The notes beneath the pieces were generated by a model. That model did not search any database. It was not told the origin of the DNA and was given only the letters and a program-made list of their open reading frames with translations. Below are positions 11,242-49,631 of a stretch of DNA of 64,000 bases, piece after piece. Numbering within the stretch: position 1 is the first letter of the stretch; the number at the start of each line of letters is the position of its first letter. A program made the translations under genes and the position numbers. Origin of the DNA: Bacteroidota bacterium (GTDB lineage: Bacteria > Bacteroidota > Bacteroidia > Palsa-965); contig JABDAO010000001.1 of NCBI GenBank assembly GCA_013289095.1, forward strand, positions 31,223 through 95,222, given 5' to 3'.

Positions 11242-11738
11242 AGTTTCCGGTTGATTTAGAAAGACGAATATAGGAACAAACCCGCTGATCGGTATACGGA
11301 ACAACTGTCAGAATCACTCTTTTCAGGTCGCTTTGAGTATGATTTTTCTCAGGCTTATGAGTAGCGGGTCTACGCCTTCTTTAAATTCCTCATACTTCCC
11401 GGCCAAAATCCTGAAATGGCTGTCCATGAGATCAGCGATGGATCGGACTAAACTAATACCAACATTGGAGAATAGGGGGCAAGGTCAAAAGTTGGGGAGT
11501 AGCCGACTTTCTGTATCAAAAACGTGAGGACAAAGATCGTTTGAGTGAAAAAATTCGGTCAAGCCTCCGGCAGAATCGTGATCTAAATCAGCATTTTTGT
11601 TAAACATGCTCCGATTTGTAAAAAAACTGGTTTTCCAGGACTAAGAGTGATTTTAGGCACGGAAGTGATTAGAGGACGTGCATCTTTAATGGGTATTCAT
11701 TCTGTTTGCTTACCACGGCTTCCAAACCTTTTGCCATG

Positions 11739-11905
11739 TACTTCGGTTTGATTTACCCGTACTTCAAACCTTTTTTCCTTTACTTCGGTTTGATTTACCC
11801 GTACTTCAAACCTTTTTTCCTTTACTTCGGTTTGATTTACCTGTACTTCAAACCTTTTTACCCCGCCTTCGGTTTGATAACCATGGTCTTCAAACCTTTT
11901 GCCAT
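11739..11905. repeat. 42-bp tandem repeat, about 3.5 copies
   Basis: TACTTCGGTTTGATTTACCCGTACTTCAAACCTTTTTTCCTT recurs at 11739, 11781 and 11823, with a degenerate fourth copy. The ORF at 11706-11966 is a translation artefact of this repeat. Confidence 0.8.
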
Positions 11906-11919
11906 GGCTTTCAAAATCA

Positions 11920-11978
11920 GTAACCCCGCACTTAGAATACGGGGGATGTCATCCCCCGTATTCTAAGCGCGGGGTTAC
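11920..11978. repeat. Long near-perfect palindrome (27-bp arms, 5-nt spacer) built on a REP-like core
   Basis: GTAACCCCGCACTTAGAATACGGGGGA-tgtca-TCCCCCGTATTCTAAGCGCGGGGTTAC, with one mismatch between the arms. Confidence 0.85.
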
Positions 11979-12120
11979 TGATTAGGTCTGTGAGGCGAAA
12001 AATGGGAGAGGCAGAAACATTTCCGTTAATTAAATGACATTGCGCTAAAGCGCGGGGTCACTTATTTCAATACACTCCGTATTAAAGAATCATTGAACCC
12101 TATGACTGTCTGAAACATAC

Positions 12121-12345
12121 TAGCTGCACGCGTTTTAACCCGCATTTTTCAGTTGAAGATGGCTAACCCGCCAGCTCTCAGGAGCAGCGGCCTGCCTGCC
12201 GTAGCTTAGAGGCTTGCGCGACGGCAGGCAGGGATAACCCATCCCGATGAATATCGCGACTGCACAAAATCCAAACGCGCCGAACCCGCCCGGCCAGGGC
12301 ACGTCAGTGATTTGCCGTTCGGACGGGCAGTAGTGCACTACGTTT
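12121..12345. ncRNA. GC-rich structured island inside a 1.6 kb gene-free region; candidate small RNA or leader (class not identified)
   Basis: About 60% GC against a ~40% GC background. It contains a 12-bp perfect stem, CCTGCCTGCCGT...ACGGCAGGCAGG, and has no credible ORF. I found no tmRNA, RNase P or SRP hallmark motifs. Confidence 0.25.
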
Positions 12346-12887
12346 CTACTGTTCATTTTGGGTTTATCTAAAAAGGGTAAATCCCAGAAAATGACGTTGA
12401 CCCGAGAATAGAGGTAGGATGTAAGTAAGATTTAACGAGTAGGCCTGAACTGTGATTCTTGTGATTACAAAGATTGAATGATTAAAATGCTTTTCTGTTT
12501 GGCAATTAGTAAGATGCTACCCACCCGGTCAGATGCAATCAAAACCAGTATAAAATCAGGATAATCAACTCAATCATACCAATCACAGTTCAGACAGTTG
12601 TTACAGGCTGGGTTCAAGCTGATGCCGGACAGATCAAGGGCAGGAAGACAGAGGCTTTTGTGGGTGTCCGGATAGACACTTCCCGGCTTCGGATTGCCTC
12701 TATCCCGGTAGGCTAAGTGATTTCCCCGGAGTATGTTAAATCAATTTCAATCCTGAAGATCCGCTAAAACTGCGTTCCATCGCACAAAAATTTACAAAGC
12801 GGTATCTATATGAATTAATAATATGGAGTGAGATACTTGAAGGAATCTCTTTCATGTTCCCAAATCGCAACTTTAAAATTTCAAATC

Positions 12888-24589: not shown

Positions 24590-27500
24590 CTATTTCATCA
24601 GATTCAGCATCCCGGTATAAACATGTTTGTTGCCCTGGAAGTCGAGTACATTCACCCGGTAAACATAGACATCTATCTGGGAAATATTGGGGCCATGGTT
24701 GGCTCTTCCATCCCAGCCTTCATCCCATACCGTACTTTCGTACAACTCATTTCCCCAGCGGTCGAAAATGTATAAAGTATATTGGCTGAAATCAATTCCG
24801 ATCCCGTTCGGACGCCAGACATCGTTATGCCCATCGCCGTTTGGAGTAAAGGCATCGGGAGCATAGAATTCATATTCAGGCTGGATGCATACTTCCGAAT
24901 GTGTTGAATCTTTACATCCGAATGCGTTTTGAACGTACAGGGTCACCCGATAGCATCCTGTGTCCGGGTAGGTATAATGTGTATTCTGCAAAGTATCGCC
25001 GGCGTTGACCACATCACCGAAGTTCCACGTCCATTTGTTGGCTCCAATACTGGTATTTGTAAAAGCGATAGAGGGATTAACGATGGAGGCAACGGCAGGG
25101 GTAGCGTTAAATGCTGCGATCGGCACCGGAAATTCAGTCATGTATCCCGGCTTACTGGTAACCGAAGTACAACCATGAATATCTTGTATCGTCAGTCCGA
25201 CGGTAAAGAAGGTAGCCACGGTGTCAGAAGGGTAACAGTGGTGTATCACACCACAACCGCTGCCCGTCGTACCATCGCCAAACACCCACTGAGCGCTTTG
25301 ACAGGCCGGCGTGGAAGTGGCCTGGAAGTTGGCGCAGAGCGGCGAGCAGCCAATTGTATCGGTAGCTGTAAAGGAGATGATCGGAGGGGCATACAGGGTG
25401 ATGGTCACAAATGCCGAATCTGAAGGTGTGCCGCAGTTATCTGTCACATGTACCGTATAGGTGGTGGCAATGGCAGGTGTTGCAGTTGGGGTAGCTGTAT
25501 TGGCCCCGGTTAAATTTGCTCCGGGTGTCCATACATACGTGTATTGATTATCCCCACCTGTAGCGCTTGCAAAAAGCGCAGTGGAATTACCCGGACAGAT
25601 TGAGGTATCATTCGAGACCGCGACAGTAAGCGACGGGTTTACCGTTACCTGTACATTTACCAGGGTGCTTGCACACTGGTTGGCATCGGTACAAACAACC
25701 ATATAACTGGAGGTAACCAGGGGCGAAACAGGAGGCGTTACCGGGGCCCCGGCCGAATTGATCCAGGCATAGGTATAGCCAGGTGTGCCTCCAGCGCCTT
25801 GTGCAATAAGGGGGGTATTTTGCGAGATACAAATGGTAGCGGCAGTAGTGGTTACCGTCACCGCAGTCGGCTGGGTGATCTGTATGGTTTGAGCATTAAA
25901 ACAGCCACTTGCATCCTTGATCGTGCAGGTATAAAATCCTGCTCCCAAACCGGTGGCGGTAGCGGTAGTATTTCCGCCTGGCACCCATGAATAAGTGTAA
26001 GGTGCAGCGCCACCAACAACACCGGCAGTGGCAGACCCATTGATACCATTAAAACAGCTGTCGTTTACAGAGGCAAGGATGGAAACCGTAATGCCAGGGA
26101 GGTTATGCACGGTGGAGGTGTCATGTACCTGACAGTTTTTGGAATCGGTTACGGTGATGGTATAGACCCCGGGAACCAGATTGTCATAACCGGGTGTTGC
26201 ACTACCGGGCGTTGGAGTCCAGGAATAGGTGTAAGGCACGGTGCCACCGGCAACACTCACAGAATCGGAGCCATCGGGCAGGTTGCAATTTGCACTCTTC
26301 GGAAACAGGGTGAGCGCCATGGCAGCAGGCTGACCCACTACGGTAGTACCCGGAATGGTACATCCCGAGGCATCGGTAACCGTGATATTATAATTTCCTG
26401 CACAGATGTTATTGCAGCTCGGCGTGGTACAACCCGAATTCCAGGAATAAGTATACGGACTCGTACCTCCGGCAGGAATACAAATAAGCTGTCCGTTGCA
26501 CCCCCCGTTGCAACTGGCATTGATCCCTGCAACATTGATGGTCAGGGCAAGTGGTTGCAGGACGCTGTCGATTTGCGTAGCCGTACATCCTTTGGAATCG
26601 GTCATGGTGCAGGTATAATTACCGGCGCAAAGAGCTGTGGCCGAGGCGGCAGCGCCTCCGGATGGGGCCCAGGCATAGGTATAGGGAAGTGTGCCTCCGG
26701 TGGCGTTCACATTCGCCACACCATTACAGAGCCCGTTGCAGGTGATATTTGTTTTTGTTCCCGTACTTGCCAGTACGGCTGGCTGGTTGATATTTTGACT
26801 GGCCGAAACTTTACATCCGTTGGCATCGGTCACAGAAACAGTATACAAACCAAAGGTCAGTCCATTTTCTACATTCGTAATCCCGGCCCCGGGGGTCCAG
26901 GAATAAGTAAGAGGAGCCGCCCCACCGGTAACAGTAGCTGTGATGGAGCCATTGTTCCCCCCAAAACAGGTCACGTTTGTAAAGGCCGAAATGACCATCG
27001 TCGGGCCACCGGTATTGCTTACGTTTACGGTGGCCGTTTGCGAGCAACCGCCAGAAGTAACTGTTACGGAGTAGGCTCCTGCCGGAATATTAGTCAATGT
27101 GGCAGCAGTACCGGCAACCGGGCTCCAGGAATAGGTGAAAGGCCCGGCTCCGGGAGCTGTAACGGTGGCAGAGCCATCGCTCTGGCCACAGGTGGCTCCT
27201 ACAAACGAAGTAGTCAAGACGGGCGGTGCACCCACGGTAATCGTACTCGTGGCAGTGCCCGTACAAGCTCCGGCAGTTCCGGTAACGGTATAGGTAGTAG
27301 TACCTGTTGGTGTTGCAACAACCGTGGCGCCGGTTGAGGCGCTGAGTGTACCGGCCGGGCTCCAGCTATACGTTGTTGCCCCAGCGGCGGTAAGCGTTAC
27401 AGTGCCTCCTGGACAAACAGTGGAGGTAAGTGGGGTTACGGTAACAGGCGCTGCTCCTACGGTAACCGTGGCAGTAGCAGTACCGGTACAACCTCCGCTG

Positions 27501-28642
27501 GTTCCGGTAACAGTATAGGTAGTTGTCCCGTTAGGCGGGGTGGCTACAACGGTAGCGCCGGTTGATGAACTCAGGGTACCAGCCGGGCTCCAGCTATACG
27601 TAGTGGCTCCGGCAGCGGTGAGGCTAACGGTTCCTCCATTACACAAGGTGGTGGTTACAGGCGTCACCGTGACGGCTGTTCCGCCTACGGTTACGGTTAC
27701 ATTGCTGGTCAAATTTATCACAGAACCATCGCAACTTGTATTTTTAAGATTTGCTGTATATGTTGTGGTTGTAGTTGGACAAACGTTTATAGTGGGGGTT
27801 GTTCCGATGCTCGTTCCGGCTGCATTCGTCCAGTTTAAGGTATAGCTCGGAGCCCCTGTAGGCGAAAATCGCCAGCCTTCGTTGGTGGCCGACCATTGTG
27901 TACTGTTGCGTCCGGGCACGGTAACACAACTGGTATAGGTCGTATTCTGAATCCCTAAAATACCAGCCCCCGCATTCCAGCTGGCGCAGAGTGGCCTGCT
28001 TTGAATATAGACATCAATATAATTGGTTGTTTCGTTTAGTACACACTGCTGTGTAGCGATGAGGTTGTTGCAGGAATAATCGGGTACCACATCCCAGTTG
28101 ATGACAAACTGACGGCAGGGAGCAGTTCCATAGATAGCCCATGTAATATTGCCCGACACGGCCGGATCAATATCGACGTAGGGAGCCATAATATTGGTAG
28201 GGTAGCTTGAATTCGGGATCGGTCCGGGCGACTGGCTCCAGGGATCGGTGTTGTTGGCCTGGGTCAGATCGAATGTAATATCACCATTTGCACCAATCAC
28301 TAATTGATTATAGGAGGTGCCATAATAACAAAAGTTAAAGGGGATGTTAAGAACAGGTGAGAACCAATCATCAATTCCAATCAAAACTGCCGTTCCGGCA
28401 GTAAATGAAGTAGGATTATAGGGAATCGCCGCCACCGAATAAGAGGCCGTACCCAAAGTGCCCTGAACAGTGGTAGTAAGGTTGGTGCAATTTCCGGGAC
28501 AAACCGTAGAAGGGCTGCCAACAGCAATCGAGGCCGCAACTTCGGGACATCCCGTTGTCTGAGAATAAATCCCAAACGGGAGAAAAAGAAGGCACGCAAA
28601 CACGATGAGTTGCGCGACGAAGGAATGTCTTCCTGACTTCAT
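24590..28642 (-). CDS. Giant cell-surface adhesin-like protein: SprB repeats and Ig/PKD-like domains, with a T9SS type-B (gliding-motility-associated) C-terminal domain
   Basis: 1350 aa. Signal peptide MKSGRHSFVAQLIVFACLLFLPFG. At least eight SprB-type repeats (G..PYTYSW / TTYSWSP). A C-terminal ~90 aa matching the CHU_C / gliding C-terminal domain pattern (FTPNGDGHND...). A ~210-bp internal direct duplication. Confidence 0.8.
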   Translation of the reverse strand: MKSGRHSFVAQLIVFACLLFLPFGIYSQTTGCPEVAASIAVGSPSTVCPGNCTNLTTTVQGTLGTASYSVAAIPYNPTSFTAGTAVLIGIDDWFSPVLNIPFNFCYYGTSYNQLVIGANGDITFDLTQANNTDPWSQSPGPIPNSSYPTNIMAPYVDIDPAVSGNITWAIYGTAPCRQFVINWDVVPDYSCNNLIATQQCVLNETTNYIDVYIQSRPLCASWNAGAGILGIQNTTYTSCVTVPGRNSTQWSATNEGWRFSPTGAPSYTLNWTNAAGTSIGTTPTINVCPTTTTTYTANLKNTSCDGSVINLTSNVTVTVGGTAVTVTPVTTTLCNGGTVSLTAAGATTYSWSPAGTLSSSTGATVVATPPNGTTTYTVTGTSGGCTGTATATVTVGAAPVTVTPLTSTVCPGGTVTLTAAGATTYSWSPAGTLSASTGATVVATPTGTTTYTVTGTAGACTGTATSTITVGAPPVLTTSFVGATCGQSDGSATVTAPGAGPFTYSWSPVAGTAATLTNIPAGAYSVTVTSGGCSQTATVNVSNTGGPTMVISAFTNVTCFGGNNGSITATVTGGAAPLTYSWTPGAGITNVENGLTFGLYTVSVTDANGCKVSASQNINQPAVLASTGTKTNITCNGLCNGVANVNATGGTLPYTYAWAPSGGAAASATALCAGNYTCTMTDSKGCTATQIDSVLQPLALTINVAGINASCNGGCNGQLICIPAGGTSPYTYSWNSGCTTPSCNNICAGNYNITVTDASGCTIPGTTVVGQPAAMALTLFPKSANCNLPDGSDSVSVAGGTVPYTYSWTPTPGSATPGYDNLVPGVYTITVTDSKNCQVHDTSTVHNLPGITVSILASVNDSCFNGINGSATAGVVGGAAPYTYSWVPGGNTTATATGLGAGFYTCTIKDASGCFNAQTIQITQPTAVTVTTTAATICISQNTPLIAQGAGGTPGYTYAWINSAGAPVTPPVSPLVTSSYMVVCTDANQCASTLVNVQVTVNPSLTVAVSNDTSICPGNSTALFASATGGDNQYTYVWTPGANLTGANTATPTATPAIATTYTVHVTDNCGTPSDSAFVTITLYAPPIISFTATDTIGCSPLCANFQATSTPACQSAQWVFGDGTTGSGCGVIHHCYPSDTVATFFTVGLTIQDIHGCTSVTSKPGYMTEFPVPIAAFNATPAVASIVNPSIAFTNTSIGANKWTWNFGDVVNAGDTLQNTHYTYPDTGCYRVTLYVQNAFGCKDSTHSEVCIQPEYEFYAPDAFTPNGDGHNDVWRPNGIGIDFSQYTLYIFDRWGNELYESTVWDEGWDGRANHGPNISQIDVYVYRVNVLDFQGNKHVYTGMLNLMK

Positions 28643-29098: not shown

Positions 29099-29389
29099 GT
29101 TAGGGTTCACTCAAAAGGTCGGCAATCTAGTGGAGGACTTTTTGAGTGAACACTAAGTAACCCCGCGCTTTAGCGCGGGGTATAAATACCCCACATCCGC
29201 GGGCTTTAGCCCAATAAGCATGCACCTGGCGTTCTCTTTTGGGCTGAAGCCCAACGTTCAAAGGGATGACATACCCCGCGCTAAAGCGCGGGGTTACTAA
29301 TTGATGCAGGTAACGTACCTTTTAATAGGTTGATAAATACACGCAAGGAAGCCTATCGTGTTCTGACTTTTTGAGTGAACCCTAATTAA
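29099..29389. mobile_element. MITE-like non-autonomous element with 17-bp terminal inverted repeats (TTAGGGTTCACTCAAAA) and two REP-like palindromes inside
   Basis: Left end TTAGGGTTCACTCAAAAGGTCGGCAATCTAGTGGAGGA (itself a hairpin with CTTTTTGAGTGAAC). Right end TTTTGAGTGAACCCTAA at 29369-29385. Interior carries ACCCCGCGCTTTAGCGCGGGGT and its partner. A second copy is at 47396-47729. Confidence 0.5.
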
Positions 29390-31093: not shown

Positions 31094-32185
31094 TCAGCAC
31101 AGGGCTTTTGCCTCGCGGTAATACTTCAAGGCTTCCTTTACAAGCGAAACATCTGCGGTCCGGTTCACCTCGCAGGAACCGATGCCCGAGAGCAATGTAA
31201 AATTCAATTGCCCCTTCACATTCTTTTTATCGTGCTTCATTAACTCGAGCAATCGATGATCCACAAACGGATCGATAGGCATATGCCCGAAACGTTCGAG
31301 GATAAAGCTTCGGATCAACTCCAGCTCCCCGGCCGGAAGTTTGTTTTTGATAAACGAAATATAGGCTTCGGCCAGCATACCGATTGCAACGGCTTCGCCA
31401 TGAAGCAGGCTGCGCGAAGAGTTTTCCAAAAAATAACTTTCGATGGCATGCCCAATGGTATGGCCAAAGTTGAGGGCCTTCCTTCCTCCCGCTTCAAACG
31501 GATCGGCGGATACAATCTCATTTTTGATGCGGATGGATTGCTCGATAATTTCTTCCCAAACGGCTCCATCGGCTATGTTCGCCGTACGTACAAACTCCCA
31601 ATACGACCTGTCGGCGATGAGTGCATGTTTAACCACCTCGGCAAAACCGCTCATCATTTCCCTTCTTCCCAATGTCTTCAGAAAATCAGGATAGATAAAA
31701 ACGGCCCTGGGCGAGTTGAATACCCCAATTTCGTTCTTGAGATGTTCAAGATCAATACCCACCTTGCCCCCTACCGATGCATCCACCTGGCTGAGCAAGG
31801 TGGTTGGTACGTTGATGAACGGTATTCCGCGTTTAAATGTAGATGCTACAAACCCGCCCAGATCGCCAATTACACCTCCGCCCAGATTGAGAAGCAGGGA
31901 AGAACGATCGGCGCCCATTTCGCCCAGGGCTTTCCATAGGCGGGTGCAGACTTCAATGTTTTTGCTGGCTTCTCCGCTTTCTATCTCCAGCACCTGCAAC
32001 TCCCCGGCACGTGCAAGCGAGGCGCTCAGCACAGGCAGACAATGCGAAGCTGTATTTTCATCGACCAGCACAAACAGCCTTGCCTGTTTGTACTCCGGTT
32101 TAGACAACAACAGATCCAGATCATGCATGACATTGTTGCCGATAAAAATGTCATAACCGTTGGATTTTAAGATAGATTTGGCCAT
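31094..32185 (-). CDS. aroB: 3-dehydroquinate synthase
   Basis: GGGVIGDLGGFVASTFKRGIPFINVPTT NAD-binding motif. The probable start is MAKSILKS at 32185; the listed ORF extends 36 codons further upstream. Confidence 0.88.
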   Translation of the reverse strand: MAKSILKSNGYDIFIGNNVMHDLDLLLSKPEYKQARLFVLVDENTASHCLPVLSASLARAGELQVLEIESGEASKNIEVCTRLWKALGEMGADRSSLLLNLGGGVIGDLGGFVASTFKRGIPFINVPTTLLSQVDASVGGKVGIDLEHLKNEIGVFNSPRAVFIYPDFLKTLGRREMMSGFAEVVKHALIADRSYWEFVRTANIADGAVWEEIIEQSIRIKNEIVSADPFEAGGRKALNFGHTIGHAIESYFLENSSRSLLHGEAVAIGMLAEAYISFIKNKLPAGELELIRSFILERFGHMPIDPFVDHRLLELMKHDKKNVKGQLNFTLLSGIGSCEVNRTADVSLVKEALKYYREAKALC

Positions 32186-32448
32186 TGTAGAGCAAAGAAA
32201 CGAAATAATCACAAAGTACTGATGGTGTATGAACAATCGGTGTACCTGCCATTTCAAGCAGACTTCTCCTTCAGAAAACAGCGGCAGGCACACCCTGTTT
32301 TATTGTTTTTGAAGCTGTCCGCTCAACAACTCCCCAGATTGCCAACCTGTATCTCTGATGAAGGACCTCTATCTATAGATTGAGTGTGGGGTAATGTCAA
32401 AAGCTGGGGGGCAGAGATCGAATGACTGCTGCATGTTGGTCCAGCCAG

Positions 32449-33040
32449 AGACACGTTCCCCCGGGGTTCCCGACACATTCCCGAAGGTTCCCGACATGTT
32501 CCCTAAGCTTCCCGACATGTTTACTAAGCTTCCCGACATGTTCCCTTAGGTTCCCGACATGTTTCCTAAGCTTCCCGACACGTTCCCCAAGGTTCCCGAC
32601 ATGTTTACTAAGCTTCCCGACATGTTCCCCAAGCTTCCCGACATGTTTACTAAGCTTCCCGACATGTTCCCCAAGCTTCCCGACACGTTTACTAAGCTTC
32701 CCGACATGTTTACTAAGCTTCCCGACACGTTTACTAAGCTTCCCGACATGTTTACTAAGCTTCCCGACATGTTCCCCAAGCTTCCCGACATGTTCCCCAA
32801 GCTTCCCGACATGTTTACTAAGCTTCCCGACACGTTTACTAAGCTTCCCGACATGTTTACTAAGCTTCCCGACATGTTCCCCAAGGTTCCCGACATGTTT
32901 ACTAAGCTTCCCGACATGTTCCCTAAGCTTCCCGACATGTTCCCCAAGGTTCCCGACATGTTCCCTTAGTTTCCCGACATGTTCCCCGAGGTTCCTTACA
33001 CGTTCCCTGAGGTTCCCGACATGTTCCCCGAGGTTCCTGA
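32449..33040. repeat. 21-bp tandem repeat array of about 28 units, core TTCCCGACAYGTT with a 7-bp variable tail
   Basis: Units [C/G]TTCCCGACA[T/C]GTT[TACTAAG / CCCCAAG / CCCTAAG...] in head-to-tail order with degenerate edge units. Each carries an ACATGT palindrome. Four of six frames are open through the array: listed ORFs 32397-33062(-), 32422-33261(+), 32559-32969(+), 32546-32959(-). Confidence 0.92.
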
Positions 33041-33540
33041 TTCTTTCTCCTAATCGAATCACATTCTATACACACTTTATCACATTCTATCCAGTCTTTA
33101 TACCAAGCATTACAGTTTCCAGACACTTCTATACATCCTTTATCGGCTGCAGGAGAGCTTTCTCCCATTTAAAGGCTCATCCCGGGAGGCATCGGGTCTT
33201 TAAAATGACCAAGAAAAGGTATAAAACAGGTTACTCCCCGGAAAATGACTTTGACCCTTGAGTGTCTGCATCTATAGATGCAGCACAGATAATCACTTCC
33301 CTACATGCCGAAGCTCTGTCAATCACAACAGCAGACAGGTGTGACTAAAATCATTCAGTGATCATAACGTTCTCAATAAGGCGTGATTTGCAACACCGTT
33401 TCTCTCCATTTTGAAGACTTAAAGATAATTTCGGTGAGCATGTAGTCTTCGCTGAGCGTGCTTTTTATGCCATCAGACAACGATTGCCCTTCCTCAACTA
33501 ATTCCAAATCAATATCTTTGCGCCCAAATCCATCTCCAAC

Positions 33541-34707
33541 ATGGTTTCATTCGACAATACAGAGATCGCTTTTTCGGGAAAAACACAAAAAGACCTGAAC
33601 CGTTCTTACTGGCTTTTCAAAATGGTGAGTAACCCGGGCCTGGTAAATTTCGGGAAGAGCATGACCGATTTCGCCCTTCGTACCCATCTTCCTATACGGG
33701 GTATCATCAAGGCCACCATTTTCAGACAGTTTGTGGGAGGTGAAGACATTGAAGAATCAAAAAAGACCATTGCCGAGCTTGGCAAATACCAGATCGGCAC
33801 CATCCTCGATTATTCGGTTGAAGGCGCAGAAACCGAAACAGCATTTGAGGCCTGTACCAAAGAAACCCTTGCTACCATTGCATTAGCCAGCGTCAATGCC
33901 CATATCCCCTTTTGTGTTTTTAAGGTAACCGGTCTGGCCCGTTTTGCCCTCCTGGAGAAGGTGAGCGCTCAGACAGCGCTCAGCGGGGCCGAAGCGGTTG
34001 AATACGAAAAAGTAAAACAACGTGTTTCGAACATCTGTGCCCGGGCTGCCGAAGCCGGTATTCCCATTTTTATTGATGCCGAAGAAAGCTGGATACAACC
34101 GGCCGTTGACGAATTGGCCGTTGAAATGATGAAACGTTTTAACCAGCAAAAACCCTTGGTTTACAATACCTTTCAACTGTATCTGAAAACCCGGCTCGAA
34201 TACCTTCGTCATTCATTTGCCCAGGCCCAGGCCGAAGGATACCTTATCGGCGCCAAACTCGTGCGCGGAGCGTACATGGAAAAAGAACGAGAAAGGGCCA
34301 CATCCATGAACTATCCAAGCCCCATACAGAATACCAAGGCCGATACCGACCGCGATTACAATGCAGCGCTTGAATTTTGTTTAGAACATATCCCCCGCAT
34401 CGGTCTCTGCGCCGGGACCCATAACGAAGACAGTTCCATGCATCTTGTCCGGGGCATGGAAAAGAACAACATCCCACACAACCATCCGCATATCTGTTTT
34501 TCACAGCTTTTTGGGATGAGCGATCACATCAGCTTTAACCTGGCCAAAGACGGGTATCATGTTGCCAAGTATGTTCCCTATGGTCCGGTAAACGAAGTGC
34601 TTCCATACCTAATCCGCAGGGCCCAGGAAAATACTTCTGTAAAAGGACAGACCGGGAGAGAGCTTTCGTTGATTATGAAGGAAAAGGAAAGACGGAAGAA
34701 AAAGTAG
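33541..34707 (+). CDS. Proline dehydrogenase (monofunctional PutA-like PRODH)
   Basis: PRODH TIM-barrel motifs (LVRGAYMEKER, FAQLFGMSD), 388 aa. Confidence 0.85.
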   Translation: MVSFDNTEIAFSGKTQKDLNRSYWLFKMVSNPGLVNFGKSMTDFALRTHLPIRGIIKATIFRQFVGGEDIEESKKTIAELGKYQIGTILDYSVEGAETETAFEACTKETLATIALASVNAHIPFCVFKVTGLARFALLEKVSAQTALSGAEAVEYEKVKQRVSNICARAAEAGIPIFIDAEESWIQPAVDELAVEMMKRFNQQKPLVYNTFQLYLKTRLEYLRHSFAQAQAEGYLIGAKLVRGAYMEKERERATSMNYPSPIQNTKADTDRDYNAALEFCLEHIPRIGLCAGTHNEDSSMHLVRGMEKNNIPHNHPHICFSQLFGMSDHISFNLAKDGYHVAKYVPYGPVNEVLPYLIRRAQENTSVKGQTGRELSLIMKEKERRKKK

Positions 34708-47251: not shown

Positions 47252-47395
47252 GTATCCCATCCGATGATACCGATGTCTGCCATTCTATCCCGGCATACAG
47301 CACTCCGTTGCAATGGTTCGCCTTTGGCCAGGGCATCCGAAAAGACACCCTCCGTCTGGTTAAAGTTCGCAGATCTGTATCTGCATCCTTTACCC

Positions 47396-47729
47396 TATAT
47401 AGGGTTCACTCAAACACCTGCAACCATCACCCAATCAACACATCATGTCTCATTTTCATCATTGAGATGCAATACTAAATACCGTTTCCAATCAAAACCC
47501 TTGCACCAAGCAGTACGTGGACGAACGTTGTGTTCAAAGGAATTTTTGCTTTCACACATGCCCGCTCAAAGACCTGCCAGGTCTTTGCCGCTTTTTGCTT
47601 GCCCAACCCCGCCTGCCGACGCGCAGGAAGCTTGAGGGGCGGGGCAGGAAAGTAACGCAAAAAAGGCCTCACGCGGAGAGCGATTCGTCCTCCACTAGAT
47701 TGCCGACTTTTTGAGTGAACCCTAATTAA
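47396..47729. mobile_element. MITE-like element, copy 2 (TIRs TAGGGTTCACTCAAA / TTTGAGTGAACCCTAA)
   Basis: It shares the TIR and the adjacent GTCGGCAATCTAGTGGAGGA module (here reverse-complemented next to the right TIR) with 29099-29389. The interior differs and contains several GC-rich hairpins. Confidence 0.45.
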
Positions 47730-47785: not shown

Positions 47786-48034
47786 ATGCATGCAAAATGA
47801 CTTGAAATGCATGTATAATGATCCATTATTCTTGAATAATAGATTGAAATGCTTGCATACTGATTTAAAATGCATGCATAATGATCCTTTATTCTTGAAT
47901 AATGGATTGAAATGCATGCATAATGATCCTTTTTGCATGTATACTGGTTTGAAATGCATGCATAATGATCCTTTTTGCATGTATACTGGTTTGAAATGCA
48001 TGCATAATGATCCATTATGCTTCATTCGTAAACG
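47786..48034. repeat. AT-rich 42-bp tandem repeat array of about 6 units, each carrying ATGCATGCAT-type palindromes
   Basis: TTGAAATGCATGCATAATGATCCTTTTTGCATGTATACTGGT appears twice perfectly with four to five diverged units. GC is about 33% against the ~48% window average. Both strands give Cys/Met/His-rich repeat ORFs: 47766-48041(+) and 47726-48091(-). Confidence 0.8.
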
Positions 48035-48179
48035 TAAATGAACTGATCGGGGTTCGGAAACAAGGAAGACACATGAAGCACTACTGAACATGATTTGTCA
48101 GTACCTGAACATTCATCAGGAGAAACAGACAATTGAAGTTCAGAGAGCGTATTCCCGAAGAATAACCGAAGTATGTTCT

Positions 48180-49631
48180 TTACCCGGCTATCAGCCCGGG
48201 TGTTTTTTCCTCTGCAGATGCACCCCGGTGATAAATATCGGCCGCTACGAGGATAGCGATAAACCCCCAGAAGGGAACCGAGGCCTTGTCGGTATCCAGG
48301 AAATTGTTCAACCCTCCATGCACCATATACGTTACAAGACCCAGCAGCACAGCCAGGGTGGTGCTTCGCAGATCGCCTTTGGGAAGGCGGTAAAACAGTC
48401 TTGAACCGGTCCAGATGACACAGATAAGGATAGCCACAAACGAACCGGCTCCGAGCATTCCCGATTCGCAAAGCGGGCCTATGTATTCGCTGTGCGCATT
48501 GCCCTTGTTGCCGGCGTTGGTACTGATGCTTGTTTTCTCGCTCGATAACTGGAACGGGGCATATTGAAAACTATAGGTTCCGGGCCCCCATCCTAAAATG
48601 GGGCGTTCGTGAAACATACGCATGGCCGAATTCCAGCGGTTGAGTCGCTCCAGGTTTGAGGCATCGGTCGAAATATTTGAGATCGACTGAACGTGTTCGG
48701 TGAGGTTGGTGGAAGAATCCTGGCGGTTTTTTTCGAGCTTGCGTACAAGATCACCCCAAACCATAGCCAGGATGATGGCAATAGCAGCAGCGCTGATCAG
48801 TAACGTGCGGATCCCTACACGGAACATATAAATGAGCCACAAGGCAAGGGCAATCAGTAGGCTTACCCAGGCAGCACGTGTATACGAAAAGATAAGGGCA
48901 ACGGTAAAAATGCAGAAGAGGATGAGCGAAAAGATCCGGCCGCTGGGTGAGAGAGAGCGATTAAAAATAAACGATACCACGAGCGGGAAAAACATAGCCA
49001 AAATGGCCCCATAGGCAGTGTGGTCGTTAAAAAACGGGGCCATGACCCAGTGGGCAGGGTCTTCGCGGAACCCAAACTGGCTGTGGTTATACAGGGTATA
49101 CCCAATGACAATAACCAAGGGGATGATATACAACCAGATGAATCTACGGATTTGGGCTTGTTTTTGAAAAACCTGGACGGCAAGGAAATAAAAACAGGTC
49201 ACGAACCACAAACGGGCCAGCAGGAATTTGAATGAAATGACCGGCATCTCGCTGGTGACAGCAGTCACAAAAATCCAGCCCAGGTTTATCAGCAAGGCGA
49301 TGGTTACCGGGTGACGGATGATCCGCATATCGTATTTGCCTTCGTACAACATCTTGAAAAAATACAGAAGCATCACCCCGATCATCAGGGGTTCGGTTGG
49401 CAGGCTTAGCCCCAGCCTGAACTCGGGATCGGTAATAGTGATCGAGAGCGGGGTAAAAAAGACAATGATGAGCAGTAAGGTATCGACCGAAACAAAAGCG
49501 AGGTAGATAATGATGCAGACTACCGGCAGGAGGTTGAGCCAGTAGAATTCAAAAAAACAACAGAGGGTGTTGAGCACCACAAAAGCAGCGCTTAAACTAA
49601 AAATCCAGCGAAGTTTTAGGGTCTGGTTCAA
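48180..49631 (-). CDS. O-antigen ligase / Wzy_C-family polymerase-like membrane protein
   Basis: About 12 TM helices with a periplasmic loop bearing the YTRAAWVSLLIALALW motif, at 483 aa. Confidence 0.72.
   Translation of the reverse strand: MNQTLKLRWIFSLSAAFVVLNTLCCFFEFYWLNLLPVVCIIIYLAFVSVDTLLLIIVFFTPLSITITDPEFRLGLSLPTEPLMIGVMLLYFFKMLYEGKYDMRIIRHPVTIALLINLGWIFVTAVTSEMPVISFKFLLARLWFVTCFYFLAVQVFQKQAQIRRFIWLYIIPLVIVIGYTLYNHSQFGFREDPAHWVMAPFFNDHTAYGAILAMFFPLVVSFIFNRSLSPSGRIFSLILFCIFTVALIFSYTRAAWVSLLIALALWLIYMFRVGIRTLLISAAAIAIILAMVWGDLVRKLEKNRQDSSTNLTEHVQSISNISTDASNLERLNRWNSAMRMFHERPILGWGPGTYSFQYAPFQLSSEKTSISTNAGNKGNAHSEYIGPLCESGMLGAGSFVAILICVIWTGSRLFYRLPKGDLRSTTLAVLLGLVTYMVHGGLNNFLDTDKASVPFWGFIAILVAADIYHRGASAEEKTPGLIAG

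Follow-up and report, generated by a model that had tools for sequence, protein, structure and literature searches.

What is a long array of 21-bp direct repeats doing between two divergently transcribed genes? The question is raised by a 64-kb stretch of DNA from an uncultured Bacteroidia bacterium (hereafter the window, to which all window-wide counts refer), in which a spacer of 1355 bp separates aroB (3-dehydroquinate synthase, 31094-32185, minus strand) from a proline dehydrogenase gene (Pro_dh, 33541-34707, plus strand). Both genes were assigned by Pfam, and the array lies between them. The initial annotation of the window had proposed a phased array of binding sites for a dimeric regulator, a contingency spacer of variable copy number, or a gene for a heptad-repeat protein. 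[quoted passage not shown] Together with a relative located 21 kb away, element B, it appears to form a new MITE family in this uncultured lineage, of a kind already known in Bacteroidetes. What looked like a phased palindrome array in a promoter region is thus replaced by a concrete and testable object.

Two elements with common ends

The motif TTGAGTG gave entry to the element. The left copy of the 8-mer TTGAGTGT is followed by 22 nt, GGGGTAATGTCAAAAGCTGGGG, which recur at 11476 as GGGGCAAGGTCAAAAGTTGGGG, while the 17 nt that precede the right copy of the 8-mer, GAAAATGACTTTGACCC, recur at 12387 as GAAAATGACGTTGACCC. These end motifs occur in identical order and orientation at both loci and delimit element A (32388-33257, 870 bp), which encloses the whole array, and element B. 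The features of the two elements are the following (TRF, Tandem Repeats Finder; lag-21 identity, identity between positions 21 nt apart):

32380-32387, plus strand: left 8-bp target-site duplication of element A, TTGAGTGT; the same 8-mer abuts both ends of the element
32388-32445, plus strand: leader of element A (58 nt), with the left terminal inverted repeat GGGGTAATGTCAAAAGCTGGGGGGCAG at 32388-32414; 22 of 27 nt match the left end of B
32446-32466, plus strand: first, degenerate 21-bp unit (CAGAGACACGTTCCCCCGGGG); the register of the array is kept and lag-21 identity rises here
32467-33033, plus strand: homogeneous minisatellite core, 27 full in-register 21-bp units in 12 variants (unit table, per-position variation)
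33034-33160, plus strand: older, decayed units that keep the 21-bp phase (such as ATCACATTCTATACACACTTT, in about two copies; TRF row 33058-33101)
33161-33257, plus strand: tail of element A (97 nt), with the right terminal inverted repeat at 33231-33257, ...GAAAATGACTTTGACCC; 21 of 27 nt match the right end of B
33258-33265, plus strand: right 8-bp target-site duplication of element A, TTGAGTGT, exact 8-mer
11468-11475, plus strand: left 8-bp target-site duplication of element B, GAGAATAG, exact 8-mer
11476-12403, plus strand: element B, 928 bp, with ends GGGGCAAGGTCAAAAGTTGGGG ... GAAAATGACGTTGACCC as in A and a different interior
11700-11906, plus strand: internal array of element B, with a 42-bp unit made of two diverged 21-bp units (CTTCGGTTTGATTTACCCGTA / CTTCAAACCTTTTTTCCTTTA; TRF periods 21/42/84)
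12404-12411, plus strand: right 8-bp target-site duplication of element B, GAGAATAG, exact 8-mer

The 8-mers abutting the ends are identical within each locus and differ between the loci, and the chance probability of such a match is 4^-8 per locus. TTGAGTGT is found in the window at exactly two sites (plus strand), both flanking element A. The TGAGTGT motif, previously read as a boundary of the array, is in fact this 8-bp target-site duplication of a MITE-like element whose second copy lies 21 kb away. All four termini align without gaps. When compared with its own reverse-complemented right end, the left end matches at 16/27 positions in A and at 16/27 in B (P-value about 10^-4 each). The pattern GGG..AA.GTCA......GGG is invariant across the four termini, which read GGGGTAATGTCA / TGACTTTGACCC, with the terminal repeat beginning GGGKYAANGTCA... 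At 0 mismatches, only the four ends of A and B match the terminus consensus in 64 kb, compared to 0.46 matches in shuffled sequences.

Imperfect terminal inverted repeats of about 27 nt combined with 8-bp target-site duplications are the signature of a family of transposable elements. Both elements are small, intergenic and devoid of a transposase gene, and since neither has room for one we consider them MITE-like. The only long open reading frames (ORFs) in element A are read-throughs of the array with non-specific Pfam matches. Element A would have been mobilised in trans by a transposase making 8-bp staggered cuts. Duplications of 8 bp are compatible with insertion sequence families such as IS1595, ISL3, IS66, IS6, IS256 and IS1, of the kind catalogued in ISfinder.

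At 100% identity to the window, Logan contigs of run SRR8422484 cross the left junction of A (to 32422), its right junction (from 33230) and the right junction of B (to 12341). These junctions are therefore not artifacts of a single assembly. We also considered the contig ends at 32422 and 33230 as evidence that the termini are multi-copy. They are suggestive, as another contig of the same run reaches 16.8 kb, but they fall short of proof, since the contig at element B extends 63 nt past the terminus. An invertible promoter or a MITE bounded by a 17-nt inverted repeat (32294-32310 / 33214-33230) was rejected: one arm lies outside element A and the other inside, and the flank-to-flank alignment scores are at shuffle level.

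A minisatellite with a 21-bp period

In element A, the leader is followed by about 34 units, 27 of them homogeneous, and then by the tail. TRF reports 26.8 copies with 86% matches and 0 indels at 32467-33028 (score 753), in agreement with the earlier description of a head-to-tail 21-bp array with degenerate edge units. One degenerate unit lies on either side of the 27 full ones. Lag-21 identity is 0.4-0.6 across 33034-33160, compared to a background of about 0.25, and the periodicity fades out around 33160. The array does not fill the spacer, as had been claimed, but takes up 0.6 kb of it. It was correctly set apart from CRISPR, because its units follow one another without spacers.

The consensus of the homogeneous core is TTCCCGACATGTT(TAC/CCC)(T/C)AAG(C/G), and the commonest units are TTCCCGACATGTTTACTAAGC (8 units) and TTCCCGACATGTTCCCCAAGC (4 units). 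The palindrome ACATGT, supposedly present in every unit, is found in 21 of the 27; five units carry ACACGT, which is not a palindrome, and one carries ACACAT. Two properties of the unit had been overlooked. A second 6-bp palindrome, AAGCTT, occurs at 18 of the 27 unit junctions, spaced 10/11 bp from ACATGT, and the unit itself consists of two diverged copies of a 10/11-bp half-unit (TTCCCGACATG / TTCCCCAAGC). There is no 7-bp periodicity inside the unit (lag-7 identity 0.10-0.19). Restriction-site avoidance or a decoy for ACATGT was rejected, since outside the array this hexamer occurs 12 times in the window, near the expectation of about 10.

RNA folding gave z = -6.9 for the plus strand and z = -1.9 for the minus strand. 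A structured RNA was rejected: the plus-strand fold is a by-product of ACAUGU/AAGCUU pairing between units, and Rfam gave no match, even when the cut-off was relaxed from the gathering threshold to E <= 1. Because every unit contains two short palindromes (6 bp each), the array between 32593 and 32802 (plus strand) can, as single-stranded RNA or DNA, close up into one long, imperfect hairpin (z = -6.9), which may help slipped structures to form and the array to expand. Homogeneous central units, decayed edge units and 42-bp block duplications are all signs of replication slippage or unequal recombination, through which the array would have grown.

The window contains three sizeable non-coding arrays, and periods of 21/42 bp are common to all of them. 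The third one (47786-48040; periods 21/42/63 bp; unit ATGCATGCATAATGATCCTTT and variants) sits between convergent ORFs, namely a 123-aa ORF with no Pfam match (47264-47635) and Wzy_C (48180-49631), and no termini of the A/B family were found around it. Unit similarity between the arrays of A and B is at chance level (8-12/21), and homology among the arrays of A, B and the third locus was rejected, because the best rotations match at 8-12/21 positions, as random sequences do. Two family members with unrelated arrays and an identical period are unusual, a lead resting on n = 2.

The shared period can be explained without invoking any function. In the loci of relatives (L002-L081, 0.90 Mb), exact 11-mers recur at offsets of 14, 21 and 28 in 19, 17 and 7 places, respectively, compared to 0-10 places at other offsets between 12 and 35. 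Tandem repeats are in excess at periods 7, 14, 21 and 28 clade-wide in these loci. Multiples of heptanucleotides are reported to dominate the long simple-sequence repeats of prokaryotes (Mrazek et al. 2007, as far as it is summarised in PMC4679880). These data fit a mutational bias, and the shared period would also fit concerted evolution of an ancestral 21-bp array. A and B may thus have kept the period while their unit sequences drifted apart, either through concerted evolution or through a clade-wide bias of slippage towards multiples of 7 bp.

When metagenomes were scanned for CCCGACAYGTT recurring at an offset of 21 bp, 18 contigs with a G+C content of 32-71% were returned, many of them with real 21-bp arrays. 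Functional conservation of the core across phyla was rejected as a product of chance and search design: the contigs share only the 11-mer that was demanded, and by our rough estimate, based on the density of 17 places at offset 21 in the relatives' loci, about 20 matches are expected for any given 11-mer in the collection. Among these metagenome contigs (L084-L100), many unrelated organisms carry short-ORF or intergenic 21-bp arrays containing CCCGACAYGTT, and in some of the high-G+C contigs the arrays translate into (L/I)xGNVSG heptads and could be coding.

Other repeats are present in the window. A dispersed element of about 37 nt, CCTCCACTAGATTGCCGAC(T/C)TTTTGAGTGAACCCTAA, occurs at 29100-29137 (minus strand) and 47683-47722 (plus strand), with partial copies at 29131-29160 and 29360-29389. 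Two copies form an inverted pair at 29100-29160, another lies about 60 nt upstream of the third array, and a degenerate, split version is present in the leader of element B. G+C-rich hairpins similar to repetitive extragenic palindromic (REP) sequences are located at 11918-11982, 12040-12060, 29160-29185 and 29265-29298 (GTAACCCCGCGC-TTTA-GCGCGGGGTTAC and a 65-nt near-perfect palindrome), two of them nested in element B. At 27252-27691, a 228-bp tandem duplication (1.9 copies, 74% matches) within a 1350-aa ORF (24590-28642, minus strand) presumably encodes a repeated protein domain.

The spacer and the competing explanations

The genes around the array are aroB, Pro_dh, an aspartyl protease-like gene, DUF4258 and alanine dehydrogenase. 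The divergent aroB/Pro_dh pair is kept in about 45 relatives, whose spacers are mostly 100-500 bp long and free of such an array. Identity of Pro_dh to the best species-level relatives in the genome collection is 70%, and to the best relatives in a protein collection of 5.8 billion clusters it is 82%, 78% and 75%. The three nearest relatives (L101-L103; Pro_dh 75-82% identical) have spacers of 146, 119 and 172 bp with no element, and share the downstream genes DUF4258, alanine dehydrogenase, TsaE and PglZ response regulator. Element A is absent from the orthologous spacer in every relative examined and hence appears, from this sequence comparison, to be a lineage-specific insertion. Several relatives hold heptamer arrays as inverted pairs in their aroB/Pro_dh spacers (for example L004, L011 and L013). 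The features outside element A that matter for the insertion are:

32193-32200, minus strand: promoter-proximal aroB box (minus-strand sequence TTTCTTTG, plus-strand sequence CAAAGAAAC), conserved beside the start of aroB in L101-L103 (motif scan)
32367-32384, no strand: first palindrome of the target site as it was before insertion (CTCTATCTATAGATTGAG, with its ATCTATAGAT core at 32371-32380)
33266-33283, no strand: second palindrome of this target site (CTGCATCTATAGATGCAG, a perfect 18-mer)
33513-33520, plus strand: -7 box of the Bacteroidetes type for proline dehydrogenase, TATCTTTG, part of the conserved ATCAATATCTTTG and kept in L101-L103 (motif scan)

Since the CAAAGAAAC and ATCAATATCTTTG boxes are common to the three nearest relatives, both promoters are intact and gene-proximal. 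Each core promoter is no more than about 30 bp from its gene, and the array is more than 260 bp away from that of aroB and more than 480 bp away from that of Pro_dh. The insertion thus lies between two intact, conserved promoters, which are separated by about 1.2 kb of lineage-specific DNA. Within the element there is no TAnnTTTG box (Bacteroidetes-type -7) that could mark an internal promoter, and sigma-70-like matches are at shuffle level.

The ATCTATAGAT palindromes noted in the initial annotation occur in the window exactly twice, at the two places given there, but they bound the transposon insertion and not the array. Deletion in silico of element A and of one copy of the duplication returned ...CCTCTATCTATAGATTGAGTGTCTGCATCTATAGATGCAG..., with the junction CTATAGATTGAGTGTCTGCATCTATAGAT. 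With the empty site restored in this way, the starts of the two ATCTATAGAT cores are separated by 21 bp. An 18-bp palindrome surrounds each core, and at one outer position the copies differ by a compensatory change from G-C to C-G. The twin palindromes were not seen in the spacers of relatives. They are a feature of the target spacer and not of the element, and could be a paired operator or hairpins. As far as the reconstruction goes, the insertion pushed them about 880 bp apart. Displacing two promoters and two palindromes by this distance would be the main effect of the array, which is probably without sequence-specific cellular function.

Could the array instead act as a set of phased operators, with one ACATGT core per two helical turns, through which a dimeric regulator would control the divergent promoters of aroB and Pro_dh? 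A 21-bp period does correspond to two helical turns, core positions 1-13 are almost invariant, and each unit carries two 6-bp palindromes spaced 10/11 bp apart. However, the array came as the cargo of a transposon, and it is missing from the orthologous spacer of all relatives examined, where the promoter boxes are conserved. No regulator gene or gene for a cognate binding protein is found among the neighbours, ACATGT has been lost in 6 of 27 units and is no more frequent than expected in the rest of the window, and unrelated arrays in the window share the same period. The 13-nt core TTCCCGACATGTT does not recur more widely either: with up to 2 mismatches it is found 28 times, 26 of them in the array and 2 elsewhere in the window, compared to 1.9 in shuffled sequences. 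The binding-site proposal is thus very unlikely to be right. A contingency locus, in which slippage-driven changes in copy number would tune the promoters or insulate one from the other, is improbable as well. In its favour are the position between divergent promoters, the homogeneous units and block duplications that point to recent slippage, and the precedent of BrickBuilt elements, whose repeat numbers vary among strains of Porphyromonas gingivalis (PMC4596501). Nevertheless, the array is remote from both core promoters, the element contains no Bacteroidetes-type -7 box, and elements of the same family occupy other intergenic contexts. Moreover, the Pro_dh cluster of the source organism consists of one sequence, with the next relative at 82% identity, and the collections contain no second strain to show variation. 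A spacer of variable copy number as such is in keeping with the data.

Another explanation is that the array serves the element itself or a DNA-organising protein of the host, offering binding sites for a transposase or a nucleoid protein, and that its period was retained for this reason. A and B do combine the same ends with non-homologous arrays of the same period, and the palindromes of the target site are likewise 21 bp apart. Binding sites, though, should conserve sequence and not period alone; the comparison has n = 2, and the third 21-bp array at 47786-48040 lacks the family termini. In addition, the excess of repeats at offsets of 14, 21 and 28 in relatives points to a mutational bias, as does the reported predominance of heptanucleotide multiples in prokaryotes (Mrazek et al. 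2007, in the summary given by PMC4679880). We regard this role as quite unlikely. A gene for a heptad-repeat, coiled-coil-like protein (LSKHVGK/LGEHVGK, minus strand, ORF 32397-33062) is extremely unlikely, and the doubts already raised about it were justified. The 221-aa ORF is open along the whole array, V and L fall at a/d-like positions, and the minus frame has many weak matches to coiled-coil profiles of Pfam and NCBIfam. But these matches are non-specific, being scattered over 130 families as expected from compositional noise. Of the four frames described as open, two are stop-free throughout and two carry 2-3 stops, whereas for any 21-bp unit chance alone predicts 4.3 open frames out of six ((61/64)^7 per frame); openness is therefore trivial, as had been suspected. 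The ORF starts with GTG, consists essentially of the array, has no flanking domain and two glycines per heptad, and lies wholly within the transposon. The two main unit types encode SK and GE, and the T/C polymorphism exchanges H for R. None of seven candidate ORFs is present in a collection of 15 billion proteins, where the array is not called as a gene, and a chimeric query of all four frames retrieved 1 unrelated low-complexity protein among the 5.8 billion clusters. Because openness is at chance level, the unit variants are radical and no relative is found among these clusters, we reject coding and conclude that the array is non-coding.

The interpretation as a MITE with an internal minisatellite also has evidence weighing against it. 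We found no parent insertion sequence or transposase, and plasmids gave no matching termini. Further family members were absent from 103 loci of other organisms, from viral contigs and from plasmids. With 64 kb of the source genome covered, two members are visible. The terminal inverted repeats are imperfect (about 60%). A and B share nothing between their ends, and for this reason we infer, rather than demonstrate, that they are the same family with a turned-over array. No true empty-site allele was seen, the nearest relative being just 82% identical in Pro_dh. Independent Logan contigs stop short of the array interior, and copy number and unit order may consequently depend on the assembly. 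Finally, polymorphic positions make up 5/8 of the unit tail and 1/13 of the core (P-value roughly 0.01, Fisher test, our estimate). This constancy of the 13-nt core is mildly non-random and leaves some room for a sequence-specific role, although it is weak evidence, as it reflects about a dozen mutational events spread by duplication.

A bolder version of the MITE reading, which we see as a long shot, is that the satellite cargo of the family is locked in its period. Copies would retain their ends and the two-turn period of 21 bp, with a palindrome at each step of 10/11 bp, even as the sequence of the unit is replaced completely, and the insertion that split the putative ATCTATAGAT operator pair could rewire the regulation of aroB, Pro_dh or both. 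If true, this would imply selection on the geometry of the array over its sequence, for example through wrapping by a transposase or a nucleoid protein. Whatever their arrays do, MITEs of this type matter in practice: they break short-read assemblies and yield spurious repeat-protein ORFs, they can drive promoters and operators apart, and they are natural markers for strain typing.

Relation to known repeat-bearing elements

Helix-phased direct repeats of 7-22 bp, often with half-repeats of 10-11 bp, are typical of plasmid iterons and of the centromere repeats bound by ParR and omega, which form 3-13 copies adjoining the gene of the binding protein and are conserved between relatives. The array of element A resembles them in its phasing and in its 10-11-bp half-repeats, but it comprises at least 27 copies, is carried by a transposon and sits in a spacer between chromosomal housekeeping genes, without a cognate gene. 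In Streptococcus pneumoniae, BOX elements are modular, mobile intergenic repeats with the end modules boxA and boxC and a variable number of tandem boxB modules. They share with elements A and B the conserved ends and the variable count of internal tandem modules, and differ in belonging to another phylum, in having a 45-nt internal module common to all copies, and in lacking a canonical 8-bp target duplication. BOX elements are mentioned in the review PMC10969869.

Simple-sequence repeats with periods that are multiples of 7 have been described in Cyanobacteria, Beggiatoaceae and some Bacteroidetes, where they are intergenic and where the spacers of related strains are shorter and without repeats (PMC4679880). 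The array of element A is also intergenic, with a period that is a multiple of 7 and with shorter, array-free spacers in relatives. In contrast to those repeats, its unit has the 10/11-bp substructure and no 7-bp periodicity (lag-7 identity 0.10-0.19). A MITE of P. gingivalis, MITEPgRS or MITE464, carries 41-nt tandem direct repeats, IS5-like terminal repeats and repetitive flanks (PMC4596501). The length of its repeats is close to the 42-nt higher-order unit of element B, but no sequence relation is shown, the terminal repeats differ, and repetitive flanks are a property of the P. gingivalis element.

The closest precedent is BrickBuilt, a MITE of P. gingivalis made of a leader, a spacer-less 23-nt minisatellite (1-22.8 copies) and a tail (Klein et al. 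2015, PMC4596501). It reaches 991 nt, is represented by 19 strictly intergenic copies, varies in repeat number among strains and has experimentally shown bidirectional promoter activity (PMC4596501), while no promoter motif was found in our element. The two systems belong to the same phylum, Bacteroidota, and are alike in many respects: both are non-autonomous, with a leader, an uninterrupted minisatellite and a tail between short terminal inverted repeats; both have a maximum size of about 1 kb (991 nt compared to 870-928 nt here) and similar unit counts (about 23 compared to 27 homogeneous units here); in both, one half of the unit is more variable; and both are strictly intergenic and hard to assemble. 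The sequences, however, are unrelated. The BrickBuilt unit is the 23-nt AGAYCATARTATCCTCTCRTRTG, compared to the 21-nt TTCCCGACATGTTTACTAAGC of element A, and its terminal repeats are IS5-like, GAGACCTTTGCA / TGCAAAGGTCTC, compared to GGGGTAATGTCA / TGACTTTGACCC (GGGKYAANGTCA...). Its target duplications are short and irregular, whereas those of A and B are clean 8-bp repeats, and all its copies have one unit in common, whereas A and B have unrelated units of equal period. With the same architecture but a different unit, different terminal repeats and a different duplication length, elements A and B stand outside the BrickBuilt family, as a new family of MITEs built around a minisatellite.

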